64,000 nt of DNA. It comes from a virus. Taxonomy: Duplodnaviria > Heunggongvirae > Uroviricota > Caudoviricetes. The notes beneath the pieces are model-generated. The model had not been told where the DNA came from. It searched no databases and saw only the letters and a list, made by a program, of their open reading frames with translations. The stretch lies in IMG/VR virus record IMGVR_UViG_3300029485_000297; one strand, given 5' to 3'. Both the position numbers and the translations under genes were made by a program. How positions within the stretch are numbered: position 1 is the stretch's first letter; every line of letters begins with the position of its first letter. Shown in pieces: positions 26,272 to 31,581 of the stretch.

Positions 26272-26928
26272 ATGATTAATAAAGAAATGATGTTGGTTAT
26301 TAAAAACAATCCTAAATTGTCAGAAATACTTGATTTATATATGGCAAATGAAATGAAGAAGTTAAAAAATATTTGCTATAAAATATGGAAAGGTAAGGTT
26401 GATAATTACGAAGAAGATGAATTGCTTGACGATGCTATAGAAGTATTAATAGAATCTTTAGTTACATATGACGCTAAAAGTAAGGCAAAATTTGAAACTT
26501 ACCTAACGGGTAATATTTCAAGATCGTCTTACAGTTGGTTTCGGGATAATAAATATACAGGCTGCCGAAATAATCTTGCCAGAGATGGTAATGGAAAGAT
26601 TATATATGAAGATGTTAATGGCAAGAAAAGACCTATAAGAATTGACAATGTTTCATTTGACTTGGATAGTGACGAAACACAGAATTTAAAAGAAACACTA
26701 TCATCCAAGATAAACATAGAAGATATTCTCATTGCGGAGGAATATACAGATAAGGTTGAACTATATCTTAGCAATTTACCTAAAAGAGTTAGAGGCGTAG
26801 CAAAGTTATTTTCTCAAGAATACAATCGAGATGAAATTATGGAATTATTACATATAACAGAACAACAATTATTAGACTGTATGAAGATTCTAAAGTCATA
26901 CGAATACATATCATTATTATTTAATTAA
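26272..26928 (+). CDS. sigma-70 family (ECF-like) sigma factor
   Basis: Region-2-like DDAIEVLIESLVTYDAKSKAKFETYLTGNISRSSYSWFRD. Region-4-like HTH LPKRVRGVAKLFSQEYNRDEIMELLHITEQQL. Confidence 0.5.
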   Translation: MINKEMMLVIKNNPKLSEILDLYMANEMKKLKNICYKIWKGKVDNYEEDELLDDAIEVLIESLVTYDAKSKAKFETYLTGNISRSSYSWFRDNKYTGCRNNLARDGNGKIIYEDVNGKKRPIRIDNVSFDLDSDETQNLKETLSSKINIEDILIAEEYTDKVELYLSNLPKRVRGVAKLFSQEYNRDEIMELLHITEQQLLDCMKILKSYEYISLLFN

Positions 26929-28491: not shown

Positions 28492-28677
28492 AACATTGTT
28501 AAAAAGTATTGTATTAAAAAAGAAAATGCAAATTGAAATAATGGAAACCTTGTCTGATATTTGTTTATATATGCAATTAGACGGATTCAAAAAAGATAAT
28601 GGGTATGGTCAATTTATGTATACACACTATAGCAATTTACAGGATATTTTAAAAGAGTATAAGGGAGAAAAATAACT

Positions 28678-28878
28678 ATGCCAGATATTACAATGTGTAC
28701 AAGCAAAACATGTGAAAGAAGAAAACAGTGTTATAGAGCAATAGCAAAGCCAGATAAGATACAAAGTTATGCTGATTTTACTTCGTTATGTGCAGATAGA
28801 GATTTTAGGTGTCAATGGATTGTTACTGACAGAGAAGTACTTGCTGATGATATAAGTAGCTTGTTAGTAAGATGCTAA
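28678..28878 (+). CDS. small Cys-rich protein
   Basis: CTSKTCERRKQCYR...C...C over 66 aa. Confidence 0.4.
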   Translation: MPDITMCTSKTCERRKQCYRAIAKPDKIQSYADFTSLCADRDFRCQWIVTDREVLADDISSLLVRC

Positions 28879-29180
28879 AATACAGGAGAATAATAAAATG
28901 GATAAAGATACAAATAAGCGAAATGAACTTAGAAAACAGTTACAAGCCTTATCAAAGGAGCGAATTATTGAATTATATATTCACTTATTCATGAATTTTG
29001 CTAATGATAAGGATGAAACCGATTGGGAAGATATTAAATAGAAGAGAACAGATTGCACAAGTTTACCGACCTAAACAACCTGCTCAGAGAATAAAATATA
29101 GGATAAACTATATATGTTCTATTATAACAAATCTATTTGGCTAATTCAAGCCAGTTTATCCTATAACAATTAGTCTTTTG

Positions 29181-29257
29181 ACTACGGGCTATTTTGAGTC
29201 CGAATAGTGAGGATTATATCACTCACTGAAAAGTATGTAATTTATATGTAATTTGAA
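29181..29257 (+). other. conserved leader/scaffold element 1 (hairpin - GAAT - hairpin - anti-repeat-like segment - TTTGAAG)
   Basis: Stem cgggct/agtccg with ATTTTG loop, GTGAG...CTCAC hairpin, and GTATGTAATTT complementary to the repeat core AAATTACATAC. Homologous to 29505-29586 and 31188-31268. Confidence 0.45.
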
Positions 29258-29487
29258 GTTTTGGAAGTATATGAAATTACATACTAACAAAATTAATAGA
29301 GATGATAAATGATGAAAGTATACGTTTTGGAAGTATATGAAATTACATACTAACAAAATATCTGGCAACAGAGAGGAGATGTTTCAGTTGTTTTGGAAGT
29401 ATAGTTACATACTAGCAAAATTACATAATATGTATCGACACAAGTTATAAATTTTTAGAAGTATATAAAATTACATCTCATTAAAAG
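29258..29487 (+). CRISPR. CRISPR-like mini-array 1 (4 repeats, 3 spacers)
   Basis: 36-nt repeat GTTTTGGAAGTATATGAAATTACATACTAACAAAAT identical at 29258 and 29324. 30-nt unique spacers. The third repeat is 32 nt with a 4-nt deletion, the fourth is degenerate. Confidence 0.6.
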
Positions 29488-29504
29488 AATATATAAATGA
29501 AATT

Positions 29505-29586
29505 AAAATCAATTCTATTGCGGTAGATTTTACTGCCGAATCGTGAGTGCAATGCAACTCATGAAAATCTATGTAATAAGTTTGAG
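29505..29586 (+). other. conserved leader/scaffold element 2
   Basis: Stem cggtag/ctgccg with ATTTTA loop, CCGAATCGTGAG, hairpin, and TCTATGTAAT complementary to the array-2 repeat core. Ends TTTGAG directly before the first repeat. Confidence 0.45.
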
Positions 29587-29754
29587 GTTTTAGATACATA
29601 TAAAATTACATAGGTATAAAACAAACCTGTTGAAATTGTTGAAGATATAGAAGTTTTAGATACATATAAAATTACATAGGTATAAAACACTTGCGTTGTT
29701 GTACTTGTAAGCTGTTTAATTTTAGAGATATTTAAAATTACAAAAAATATAAAA
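29587..29754 (+). CRISPR. CRISPR-like mini-array 2 (3 repeats, 2 spacers)
   Basis: 36-nt repeat GTTTTAGATACATATAAAATTACATAGGTATAAAAC identical at 29587 and 29653. 30-nt spacers. A degenerate terminal repeat at 29719-29754 abuts the nuclease RBS. Confidence 0.6.
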
Positions 29755-29769
29755 GGAGATTTACAAATT

Positions 29770-31158
29770 ATGGGAAACAATAGAATGACAATTTGTAGAA
29801 AAATTAAATTATTTCCAGTAGGAGATAAGGATGAAATCAATAGAGTATATAACTTTATTAGAAATGGTCAGTATGCTCAATATCAGGCTTGTAACCTGCT
29901 TATGGGACAGCTTATGAGTGAATATTACAAATATAATCGTGATATTAAGAATGAAGAATTTAAGGCAAGACAGAAAGAAATAATGACAAACTCTAATATC
30001 ATATTAAAAGATATTGATTTTGCAACTGGTGTAGACACTCCATCAGCCGTTACTCAGAAAGTCAAGCAGGATTTCAGCACAGCTTTAAAGAATGGATTGG
30101 CTAAAGGTGAACGAACTGTAACAAATTATAAGAGAACTAATCCACTTATTACAAGAGGCAGAAACTTAACTTTTTATCATGAGTATGAAACATATCATGA
30201 TTTTTTAGACAAGATTAATGATTCTGATTTGGCGGTATATGTCAAGTGGGTTAATAAAATTGTATTTAAGGTTGTGTTTGGCAATCCGCATAGGTCATTA
30301 GAGTTAAGATCTGTTATTCAGAATATATTAGAAGAGAATTATAAAGTGCAAGGAAGTAGCATTGAAATTGATGGTAAGTCAATCATTTTAAATCTCTCAA
30401 TATCTATTCCAAAACAACTTAGAGAGCTGGATGAAAATATAGTAGTAGGTGTTGATTTAGGCATTGCAGTTCCTGCTATGTGTGCTTTAAACAATAATCT
30501 TTACGAGAGATTGGCAATTGGAAATGCAGATGATTTTCTAAGAATAAGAACTAAAATGCAAGCTCAGAGAAAAAGATTACAGAAGTCATTACGAAATACT
30601 TCTGGTGGTCATGGTAGAGCAAAGAAACTGAAAGCATTAGAAAGATTGCAGAAAGCAGAAGTACATTTTGTTGAAACATATTGTCATATGATAAGTAAAA
30701 GAGTCGTTGATTTTGCTTTAAAACATAATGCTAAATACATAAATATTGAGAATTTAACAGGATATGATACAAGTGATTTTATCCTGAGAAATTGGAGTTA
30801 TTATAAACTTCAAGATTATATTACATATAAAGCAGCTAAATACGGAATAGAAGTAAGAAAAATCAATCCTTGTTATACATCACAGATTTGTAGTGTATGT
30901 GGTAATTGGGAGTTTGGTCAGAGAAAGTCACAGTCAGTATTTGAATGTGCAAATGAGAATTGTGATAGTCATAAAAAATATGAAAAAACTGGTTTTAATG
31001 CAGACTTCAATGCTGCCAGAAACATTGCAATGTCAACTCTTTGGATGGGAAGTGGACAAGTTACTGAAAAGAGTAAACAGGAAGCAAGAGAATATTATGA
31101 TATCTCTGAAAAATATGAACAAAGTAAGAATGGTTCAGAGAATAATAAAGTAGCTTAA
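29770..31158 (+). CDS. TnpB/Cas12-family RuvC nuclease, 462 aa (compact type V-like effector candidate)
   Basis: RuvC-I VVGVDLGIAVPA. RuvC-II KYINIENLTG. Zinc finger CYTSQICSVCG...CANENC. RuvC-III NADFNAARNIA. N-terminal MTICRKIKLFPVGD as in TnpB/Cas12f. RBS AAGGAG 29753-29758. Confidence 0.85.
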   Translation: MGNNRMTICRKIKLFPVGDKDEINRVYNFIRNGQYAQYQACNLLMGQLMSEYYKYNRDIKNEEFKARQKEIMTNSNIILKDIDFATGVDTPSAVTQKVKQDFSTALKNGLAKGERTVTNYKRTNPLITRGRNLTFYHEYETYHDFLDKINDSDLAVYVKWVNKIVFKVVFGNPHRSLELRSVIQNILEENYKVQGSSIEIDGKSIILNLSISIPKQLRELDENIVVGVDLGIAVPAMCALNNNLYERLAIGNADDFLRIRTKMQAQRKRLQKSLRNTSGGHGRAKKLKALERLQKAEVHFVETYCHMISKRVVDFALKHNAKYINIENLTGYDTSDFILRNWSYYKLQDYITYKAAKYGIEVRKINPCYTSQICSVCGNWEFGQRKSQSVFECANENCDSHKKYEKTGFNADFNAARNIAMSTLWMGSGQVTEKSKQEAREYYDISEKYEQSKNGSENNKVA

Positions 31159-31187
31159 GTGCTACTTAATCAATCGTAAGATTGCAG

Positions 31188-31268
31188 GTGATTTTGCACC
31201 TGAATGGCGAGGTTGTTAATTAATGGCACTCGTTAGAATCTATGTTAATAGTATCTGTGTGATTTGAG
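31188..31268 (+). other. conserved leader/scaffold element 3
   Basis: Stem caggtg/cacctg with ATTTTG loop, then GAATGGCGAGG, then ATCTATGTTAA complementary to the downstream repeat core TTAACATAGAT. Ends TTTGAG. Confidence 0.4.
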
Positions 31269-31370
31269 GTTTTAGATATGTTTAATTTAACATAGATACA
31301 AAACACGGTTAAGACAACATTTTACTCAGTAAAATGATTATTCAATATAGATACTACAGAAATGTTGAGA
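31269..31370 (+). CRISPR. CRISPR-like mini-array 3 (1 repeat, 1 spacer, degenerate repeat)
   Basis: GTTTTAGATATGTTTAATTTAACATAGATACAAAAC relates to the array-2 repeat. A 30-nt spacer follows, then a degenerate copy containing ATAGATAC. Confidence 0.4.
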
Positions 31371-31419
31371 TTATCAAGCTAATGGAAGAAAAATATAATA
31401 CGAAAAGGAGAATAGTTAA

Positions 31420-31581
31420 ATGTCAGTATTTTTTATATTAGTTTTAATAGGATTAATAATTTTATGGTTTCTACTGTCACCTTTATTTGAAAAAATTGGT
31501 AAGTTTGTTATCAATGTTATAAATAAAGTATTTTCGACAGATGAAATAAATAATAACGAAGAAAAGGAGACAAAAGAATGA
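31420..31581 (+). CDS. small single-pass membrane protein (NfeD-like partner candidate)
   Basis: 53 aa with hydrophobic helix FFILVLIGLIILWFLL. AAAAGGAG RBS. Stop overlaps the SPFH start (ATGA). Confidence 0.35.
   Translation: MSVFFILVLIGLIILWFLLSPLFEKIGKFVINVINKVFSTDEINNNEEKETKE

Follow-up and report, generated by a model that had tools for sequence, protein, structure and literature searches.

A predicted tracrRNA scaffold, CRISPR repeat and spacer behind the Cas12f1-like nuclease gene of a Caudoviricetes phage

The 64,000-nucleotide (nt) stretch of the Caudoviricetes record IMGVR_UViG_3300029485_000297 described here (the window) encodes a miniature nuclease with short CRISPR arrays on both sides of its gene. 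Two cassettes lie upstream of the nuclease gene, and a third module, the subject of this report, follows its stop codon and precedes a gene of the SPFH family (Table 1). A sequence-only reading had described this third module as a leader followed by a one-spacer mini-array, and had proposed it as the ancestral guide module or as the source of the trans-activating CRISPR RNA (tracrRNA). We compared the locus with 26 viral loci from IMG/VR, among them 20 close relatives, and with 10 related loci in bacterial genomes; individual loci are given L numbers.

The nuclease gene ends in a TAA codon at 31156-31158. Its product contains the RuvC-type motifs DLG, NIENL, and NADFNAA, and with 462 amino acids (aa) lies within the ~400-550 aa of Cas12f1-homologous effectors that have a C-terminal split RuvC and Zn ribbon. 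It matches Pfam Cas12f1-like_TNB (PF07282; 1.7e-15) and, weakly, OrfB_IS605, and scores 161 bits with the NCBIfam model guided_TnpB, over the cut-off of that model; Cas12f2 is the only NCBIfam Cas12f model that it matches, with a score under the cut-off. The best relatives of solved structure are 8HR5 (E 7.8e-88) and 9NZP (E 1.8e-81), which are CnCas12f1 and RhCas12f, respectively (PMC13186708), and 9NZO, 8J12, and 7WJU are matched as well, whereas ISDra2 TnpB reaches only E = 0.002 in the same search. Because Cas12f1 entries dominate the solved-structure matches, the nuclease is, judged from its protein sequence, a Cas12f1 of the former V-U3 group (type V-F1). Identity with Cas12p ("Cas12 hacker") was ruled out, as the match to 9JFS is at E = 0.0024 and Cas12p proteins are 500-700 aa in size.

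Table 1. Coordinates of the features at the nuclease locus, numbered from the first nucleotide of the window.
Feature	Coordinates	Strand	Basis
Upstream cassette 1: own tracrRNA scaffold (29171-29257), four repeat copies, three spacers	29171-29487	+	
Upstream cassette 2: own tracrRNA scaffold (29510-29586), two repeats, degenerate third repeat, two spacers	29510-29754	+	
cas12f1-like nuclease gene, 462 aa, predicted effector served by the module	29770-31158	+	open reading frame (ORF) call
Hairpin across the nuclease stop codon (AAGTAGC-TTAAGT-GCTACTT)	31148-31167	+	hairpin scan
Stem-loop 0 (SL0), 5-bp hairpin with tetraloop (CAATC-GTAA-GATTG), abutting SL1	31171-31184	+	
Stem-loop 1 (SL1) of the tracrRNA scaffold, perfect 6-bp stem (CAGGTG-ATTTTG-CACCTG)	31185-31202	+	
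Stem-loop 2 (SL2) of the scaffold (GGCGAGG...GCACUCGUU), conserved GAG/CUC core, variable apex	31205-31235	+	minimum free energy (MFE) fold
Primary anti-repeat (GAATCTATGTTAA), complementary to repeat positions 19-31 (31287-31299)	31236-31248	+	inverted repeat
Second, partial anti-repeat copy (GTATCTGTGT) and conserved TTTGAG junction to the repeat	31250-31268	+	alignments
Sole full 36-nt CRISPR repeat, GTTTTAGATATGTTTAATTTAACATAGATACAAAAC	31269-31304	+	repeat-family detection
30-nt spacer (guide), ACGGTTAAGACAACATTTTACTCAGTAAAA, the oldest (distal) spacer of the downstream array	31305-31334	+	
Probable terminal repeat remnant, 5'-truncated and degenerate	31335-31359	+	gapped alignment
SPFH/Band 7 (prohibitin-like) gene	31578-32447	+	Pfam Band_7 2.3e-25; PHROG 200 6.7e-61
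Protospacer-like site in the SPFH gene of the window (ACCA + ACTGTAAAAACGACACTTTACTCGGTGAGT)	31745-31778	+	21/30 to the spacer, 15/20 in the guide part

A perfect hairpin about 30 nt past the stop codon had been noted before, and this is SL1, which starts 27 nt after the stop. The start given for the element, 31188, falls 3 nt inside this stem, and the element begins earlier, with SL0. Hairpins at the SL0 position stand before nearly every module of the family, differing in sequence and keeping their pairing (TAGTC-TTTT-GACTA, CAAT-TCT-ATTG, CATAC-AAAT-GTATG, CGATC-GAAA-GATCG). The hairpin that spans the stop codon has compensatory versions at the same place in distant relatives (GGTAGC..GCTACC, GGGTAGC..GCTACCC, and AGACAAT..ATTGTCT, as judged by eye). 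It is not an obvious terminator because the plus strand lacks a T-tract, and it is possibly a processing element or a 5' element of the tracrRNA. The second, partial copy of the anti-repeat pairs with ACATAGATAC in the MFE fold and is probably optional, as module 2 is without one. The fold of the downstream module has a z-score of -2.9.

The single full repeat of 36 nt and the 30-nt spacer are as originally described. In L014-L018 the same repeat is duplicated with 30-nt spacers, at a period of 66 nt in L015 and L017, and the spacer limits are independently backed because the similarity to the SPFH gene spans exactly those 30 nt. The degenerate second repeat fared less well. Placed in register at 31335-31370 it agrees with the repeat at 14/36 positions, a level reached by 19% of all 36-mers of the window and therefore at chance; a 5'-truncated remnant that has lost the first ten repeat bases is plausible only, with 31335-31354 matching repeat positions 11-31 at 17/21 with one gap (P ~0.08 against shuffles) and the alignment extended by eye to 31359.

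The element in front of the array does occur in three copies, as had been proposed, and these align with a mean column identity of 72% (3-way). A covariance model finds exactly three in the 64 kb, at 29182-29293, 29518-29622, and 31182-31304, although it was built including these copies and proves uniqueness rather than independent discovery. An Rfam scan of 28500-32000 gave no match. What does not hold is the identification of this element as a leader, as it has the properties expected of a tracrRNA scaffold. We collected 34 distinct modules from the window and the 26 IMG/VR loci and tested a structure of four helices, namely SL1, SL2, the duplex of the anti-repeat with the repeat's 3' half, and a pseudoknot that joins the SL1 loop to the five final paired bases of the repeat. 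In this set 95.5% of cells are paired, compared with 29-45% when the partners are slid; changes on both sides occur in 19 of 32 pairs, and none of 500 shuffles reaches the observed values. The SL1 stem is 100% paired with compensatory changes in four of its six pairs, SL2 has both-sided changes in 6/10 pairs, and the primary anti-repeat has compensatory changes in 7/11 pairs with 94.5% of cells paired.

The pseudoknot links the TTTTG of the SL1 loop to CAAAA at the 3' end of the repeat (31299-31303), and is 98.8% paired in the same set. When bacterial-genome loci are included (31 modules) six combinations are found, TTTTG:CAAAA, TTTCG:CGAAA, CTTTG:CAAAG, TTTCA:TGAAA, TTTTA:TAAAA, and TTTGA:TCAAA, with full pairing in 30 of the 31. 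The guide RNA (gRNA) of RhCas12f as resolved by electron cryomicroscopy (cryo-EM) opens with ACGGCUG-AUUUAG-CAGCCG-AAG-UCUGAGG...CCACUCGGA and closes, ahead of the guide, with ...GUAAAU; it shares with the phage scaffold stem 1, the AAG linker, a GAGG...CACUCG stem 2, and a match of the AUUUA:UAAAU type between loop and repeat end. Because the four helices covary and the 5' part is homologous to the RhCas12f gRNA, the supposed leader is predicted to be a tracrRNA scaffold. The covarying scaffold and anti-repeat fill 31171-31268, between the stop codon at 31158 and the repeat at 31269, and this is the canonical place of a type V-F tracrRNA both in the related loci and in the literature, which for the Cas12f1 (V-U3) family places the tracrRNA between nuclease gene and array (PMC7229846; 10.1101/2023.02.03.527072). 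The resemblance in position that had been drawn to type V-F tracrRNAs is thus well founded.

The comparison of loci bears on how old and how important this module is. A single-protein scan of bacterial genomes for relatives of the nuclease found none, and the bacterial-genome relatives came from a profile scan; BLAST of the locus, and of 24 kb surrounding it, against GenBank phages gave no match. A module just after the nuclease stop is present in all 26 viral loci and in 9/10 bacterial-genome loci, while upstream modules are found only in some, and the post-stop position is the conserved one because both viral and bacterial-genome loci carry a module there. This agrees with the proposal that it is the ancestral guide module. 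In Lachnospiraceae and other Clostridia relatives (42-62% identity) the module of those nine loci starts ~20-150 nt past the stop, and some bacterial-genome loci also have a second or an upstream module. In the distant viral relatives (48-60% identity) a single module precedes the nuclease gene and one to five cassettes follow it in tandem, every cassette having a scaffold and a repeat variant to itself and one or two spacers; three to five stand in tandem at L022 4404-5560, L024 4422-5600, and L025 4462-5000, with up to five in L022 and L024.

The 20 close relatives, whose nucleases are 95-100% identical and have an intact ORF in every case, all have two upstream scaffolds and one downstream. 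The downstream module is identical in L001-L003, and the same sequence is found unchanged in four contigs. Its array varies between strains: L012 has one spacer, L014-L018 and L020 have an extra, different spacer on the scaffold-proximal side, and the adjacent arrays thus range from one repeat and spacer in the window to two repeats in relatives, with strain-variable spacers. Others have lost parts of it, with a deletion from the anti-repeat to the middle of the repeat in L005-L010, a deletion from SL2 to the middle of the repeat in L013, and a damaged repeat end in L011. The idea that the module is essential does not survive this comparison, as the 462-aa ORF and its catalytic motifs are intact in L005-L010 and L013, which lack the anti-repeat and/or the repeat. 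Because these seven relatives keep an intact nuclease ORF the module is dispensable, and yet the variation among its spacers suggests that the downstream array is live in the population. In L014, L016, and L019 the end of the array joins the tRNA region directly and the SPFH gene is missing there.

The two upstream cassettes have scaffolds of their own, with compensatory anti-repeat and pseudoknot changes that match their own repeats. The calculated cognate anti-repeat:repeat duplexes of modules 1, 2, and 3 have energies of -13.1, -11.9, and -12.1 kcal/mol, against -3.2 to -9.2 for non-cognate pairs; for the downstream scaffold the pairing is poor with repeat 1 (-3.2) and moderate with repeat 2 (-8.1). 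The downstream module is not the only tracrRNA source, since both upstream arrays are provided with a cognate tracrRNA; it is one of three redundant cassettes. Within cassette 1 the third repeat is shortened to 32 nt and the fourth is degenerate. The shortening of the third (29390-29421) is an internal 4-nt deletion (GTTTTGGAAGTATAGTTACATACTAGCAAAAT) kept in several relatives. Repeats are otherwise 36 nt and spacers 30 nt throughout; those of array 2 and the downstream array begin GTTTTAGA and end AAAAC, and those of the first upstream array begin GTTTTGGA and end AAAAT. This 36/30-nt geometry and the repeat termini presumably resemble those of type II-A repeats, and by that analogy a host adaptation module could service these arrays.

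The spacer of the downstream module, ACGGTTAAGACAACATTTTACTCAGTAAAA, follows the last repeat in eight contigs, and L015, L017, and L018 have an extra, different spacer upstream of it; all of these are viral mini-arrays on contigs classed as viral in IMG/VR, with one spacer in the window. Its best counterpart lies in the neighboring SPFH gene. The allele of the window (31749-31778) differs from the spacer at 9/30 positions, including five of the first 20, the reading frame is kept (TVKTTFYSVK in the spacer, TVKTTLYSVS in the gene), and seven of the nine mismatches are at third codon positions (P ~0.008, a binomial estimate). The similarity ends exactly at the 30-nt limits. SPFH alleles of other phages are closer, at 25/30 in L048 and 24/30 in L037 and L061, with 18/20 in the guide part in each. 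The downstream array of L020 ends in a repeat fused to a 5'-truncated SPFH gene, at the base equivalent to window position 31749; the remnant repeat, a pair of small ORFs, and 171 nt from the start of the SPFH gene have been lost at this junction (L020 4566-5300). It may be the scar of a spacer/protospacer recombination or of self-targeting. The L020 arrangement would give a guide matching the SPFH allele that is common among relatives. Because the register coincides with the L020 junction, the mismatches follow the codon phase, and closer alleles are found in other phages, the best reading is that the spacer derives from a homolog of the neighboring SPFH gene. The palindrome reported within the spacer, TTTTACTCAGTAAAA, exists, but it is only the source-gene codons TTT TAC TCA GTA AAA and is not conserved in the target alleles.

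The 5' flank of the SPFH protospacer alleles is (A/G)CC(A/G/C), with ACCA at the site in the window, and ACCA likewise flanks a second protospacer, deduced from two spacers of the family with a 4-nt offset. The protospacer-adjacent motif (PAM) of RhCas12f is TCCA/CCCA; type V-F1 nucleases characteristically have a T- or C-rich PAM on the 5' side and, as a dimer with one guide RNA, cut double-stranded DNA. Scans for two other family spacers, aimed at the PAM, found arrays only, and a BLAST comparison of 44 family spacers with all fetched loci found no true targets. Some family spacers are related to one another, with 4-nt-offset spacers of one target in one pair and opposite-strand overlap in the other (L001 2789/L011 ~2658; L010 2811/L006-L009 ~2860), which suggests repeated sampling of one target region. 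The spacer GTAAAAGGAAAGTGGTCTGATGCTGATCTT stands in upstream array 2 of L003 (~2723-2752) and in the downstream array of L020 (4536-4565), and its presence in different array types of two phages therefore points to array exchange or repeated acquisition.

Together these results favor the interpretation of 31171-31359 as the canonical guide-RNA module of a phage type V-F1 (V-U3-like) Cas12f1, composed of a tracrRNA scaffold, a repeat, and a spacer, with a probability that we put at about 0.8. The scaffold, repeat, and spacer would be made as one transcript, either by read-through from the nuclease gene or from a promoter of their own. The anti-repeat would bind the repeat in its 3' half, and a pseudoknot would join the SL1 loop to the last five repeat bases, giving a precursor similar to a single-guide RNA (sgRNA), whose duplex is possibly cut by a host RNase and which a Cas12f dimer would load. 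With the first ~20 nt of 31305-31334 as the presumed guide, the complex would cleave CCA-flanked SPFH alleles of related phages, and the SPFH copy of the window would be spared by its five mismatches in the first 20 nt. The spacer is thus likely to direct attack on related co-infecting phages, because it comes from an SPFH homolog and the resident copy differs from it at 9/30 positions. On the comparative evidence the module appears to sit at the ancestral position of the family and to be eroding in several lineages.

Several observations weigh against this interpretation. Seven of the 20 close relatives have the deletions in the downstream module described above, and in the window the terminal repeat of its array is almost gone. 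Expression signals in the sequence are no better than chance, with 17 sites in a scan of the locus for sigma-70 promoter and terminator consensus sequences against 17.8 expected. The covariation sample is phylogenetically clustered, and the structure was derived from the same sequences. The 21/30 agreement of the spacer with the resident SPFH gene is not significant alone, as it was reached by 8/40 shuffled spacers. An exact 20-mer scan of IMG/VR for the spacer returned arrays only and no perfect protospacer, and a CCN-flanked 17-mer scan of the JGI metagenomes gave three unrelated chance matches and no perfect target. Among the 120 best clusters of SPFH homologs, not one encodes the F and K residues of the spacer translation TVKTTFYSVK. 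Because there is no perfect target and these residues are in no homolog cluster, the spacer may have drifted since its acquisition and may mismatch every real allele at no fewer than two positions in the first 20.

Such decay is the starting point of the strongest rival explanation, that the module is a decaying relic of the original downstream array with no useful guide now, and that the two upstream cassettes do the work. It would account for the single spacer, the nearly obliterated terminal repeat, the missing perfect target and unmatched F and K residues, and for the internal deletions of L005-L010 and L013 and the damaged repeat end of L011 alongside nucleases that are all intact. A relic would not, however, be expected to retain scaffold helices, an anti-repeat, and a pseudoknot that are all perfectly complementary in the window, nor to be unchanged in four contigs, nor to be a site of recent spacer gain in sister lineages, and we therefore consider it doubtful, though a serious contender. 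Rather less probable is a supply in trans, in which the upstream arrays would rely on the downstream scaffold as the main tracrRNA, the tracrRNA-source idea of the sequence-only reading. The scaffold is in the canonical tracrRNA position, it shares its pseudoknot bases with module 1, and it pairs partially with repeat 2 (-8.1 kcal/mol); but both upstream arrays come with scaffolds whose anti-repeat and pseudoknot match their own repeats, the cognate energies of -11.9 to -13.1 kcal/mol compare with -3.2 for the downstream scaffold with repeat 1, and relatives without the downstream anti-repeat retain both upstream cassettes and the nuclease. This makes a supply in trans unlikely.

The remaining explanations have little in their favor. 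A true CRISPR leader, acting in DNA as promoter and integration signal for spacer acquisition and not as a structured RNA, would lie directly upstream of each array with new spacers adjoining it, just as this element does. A DNA signal would not be expected to show compensatory changes in four helices, long-range pairing to the repeat among them, the element is homologous to a guide RNA resolved by cryo-EM, and neither Cas1 nor Cas4 was found among the 59 plus-strand ORFs of at least 110 aa in the window (25 of the 30 matched families being listed, and Cas2-sized ORFs lying outside the scan), so that a leader is hardly credible. An RNA of the omega type from a TnpB of an IS200/IS605-type transposon, a mobile unit that has defined ends and usually a TnpA, with the DNA beyond the right end as its guide, is equally improbable, even though NCBIfam puts the protein under guided_TnpB, the RNA begins at the 3' end of the gene, and the repeat of L020 abuts genomic DNA directly. 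CRISPR repeats come after the scaffold, with 30-nt spacers that vary from strain to strain, the closest characterized proteins are Cas12f1 with ISDra2 TnpB at only E = 0.002, the scanned ORFs upstream of the nuclease have no Pfam match over the curated cut-off, and the 25 families listed, out of 30 for the window, include no Y1 transposase (TnpA); the likeness to an omega-RNA that had been suggested is accordingly set aside. It is also very unlikely that the guide acts as a self-directed regulator, binding the resident SPFH gene 444 nt downstream without cleavage and so tuning it. The resident site does have a PAM-like ACCA flank and 15/20 agreement in the guide part, and a natural sgRNA that autoregulates Cas9 loci provides a reported precedent (10.1101/2020.05.21.102756). 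But the mismatches at guide positions 3, 6, 9, 12, and 16, across the PAM-proximal half, should block the R-loop, the nuclease retains its catalytic motifs, and alleles of other phages match better than the resident one.

The locus shares with the type V-F1 Cas12f1 systems of Clostridia (RhCas12f1, 9NZP; CnCas12f1, 8HR5) the miniature RuvC/Zn-ribbon nuclease, a tracrRNA between nuclease stop and array with an anti-repeat complementary to a 36-nt repeat in its 3' part, a 5' scaffold of stem 1, loop:repeat-end pseudoknot, and GAGG...CACUCG stem 2, and a C-rich flank of the CCA type, which is deduced here from two protospacers. The lack of nearby adaptation genes, a V-U3 hallmark, may be a further likeness, as neither Cas1 nor Cas4 is among the 25 of 30 matched families listed for ORFs of at least 110 aa. 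It differs from them in being carried by large phages (contigs of 75-190 kb), in that the scaffold abuts the first repeat, and in having several cassettes, each with a co-varying tracrRNA and repeat variant of its own, instead of one tracrRNA and one array; relative to RhCas12f there is no equivalent of the third stem between SL2 and the anti-repeat. TranC systems, intermediates between transposons and CRISPR, combine a TnpB-sized nuclease and short arrays with a tracrRNA from a split ancestral RNA, and some are from Caudoviricetes genomes and from Oscillospiraceae/Ruminococcaceae (cited in 10.64898/2026.03.27.714800). They are defined by a clade apart from the named Cas12 subtypes and by the use of CRISPR as well as transposon-derived guide RNAs. 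The nuclease here groups firmly with established Cas12f1 (E ~1e-88) rather than with a separate clade, and this similarity to bona fide Cas12f1 proteins argues for V-F1 over TranC.

Viral CRISPR mini-arrays act in inter-virus competition (PMC11656645), and the downstream array resembles them in being a virus-borne array within their range of one or two spacers, with a spacer that probably comes from a gene of related viruses. Classical viral mini-arrays depend on Cas proteins of the host and copy its repeats, whereas this phage has its own effector and tracrRNAs, and the host-repeat and host-Cas feature is probably not applicable to it, the effector being phage-borne. Like the omega-RNA (reRNA) of TnpB, the module places a structured scaffold at the 3' end of a gene of the TnpB family and the guide 3' of that scaffold; a pseudoknot adjoins the guide, and each guide has one scaffold. 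It differs in that the scaffold is split into anti-repeat and repeat, the guides are strain-variable 30-nt spacers, and no transposon context is seen; moreover, the omega-RNA starts well inside the ORF, and the RNA here lies after the stop unless the stop-codon hairpin is included. The natural sgRNA of type II-A, a long form of the tracrRNA, is reported to repress the cas promoter of a Cas9 system (10.1101/2020.05.21.102756), and it too is a natural fusion of scaffold and guide encoded beside an array, but the fusion here joins a scaffold to a true type V repeat-spacer unit and a regulatory role is unlikely.

Past the SPFH gene are genes for tRNA-Gln(ttg) (32494-32566) and tRNA-Lys(ttt) (32570-32644). 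Pfam matches among the 59 ORFs of the window include D12-class, N6_N4, and C-5 DNA methyltransferases, NAPRTase, NAD synthase, a cytidylyltransferase-like enzyme, RNA ligase, a MazF-like toxin, superinfection-exclusion gp17, LemA, SPFH, and phage integrase, the last matched by two ORFs elsewhere in the window. From this gene content the window looks like an accessory or counter-defense island. Three genes upstream of the CRISPR locus the ORF at 26272-26928 has a sub-threshold match to Sigma-70 region 2 (E 7e-4), and may encode a phage sigma factor. Relatives of the nuclease are found in assemblies of Butyrivibrio, Roseburia, Lachnoclostridium, and Ruminococcus (L073-L082), and SPFH homologs are named from Agathobacter rectalis and Eubacterium (P0205, P0231); the host is probably a gut or rumen member of the Lachnospiraceae.

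The third module is itself ordinary, being what is expected downstream of a Cas12f1 gene, and the unusual part appears to be family-wide, a single nuclease flanked by several self-contained cassettes of tracrRNA and mini-array. Literature searches on the topic turned up no description of a multi-cassette organization with privately co-evolving tracrRNA:repeat pairs. Cassettes stand on both sides of the nuclease gene, and their anti-repeat:repeat and pseudoknot pairs have co-evolved privately. We tentatively propose that the unit of guide storage in these phages may be a self-contained cassette with its own tracrRNA scaffold and a mini-array of 1-3 repeats, rather than a tracrRNA with a long array, and that the first unit of each cassette may form a natural sgRNA by folding in cis. 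In annotation, tracrRNA genes are the appropriate reading of the conserved "leaders" of these arrays, and there are therefore three naturally orthogonal-looking tracrRNA:repeat pairs for one 462-aa Cas12f. The locus also adds a case of a phage with its own miniature effector and mini-arrays apparently aimed at relatives, in an island of methyltransferase, NAD-salvage, and exclusion genes, and it raises the question of how spacers turn over in arrays without adaptation genes. The cassette organization bears on the relation of systems with tracrRNA and array to single-scaffold omega-RNAs: if the proposal is true, these cassettes would be intermediate between the TnpB omega-RNA, with one scaffold per guide, and the classical tracrRNA and array, and phages could duplicate or swap guides by recombination without Cas1-Cas2.

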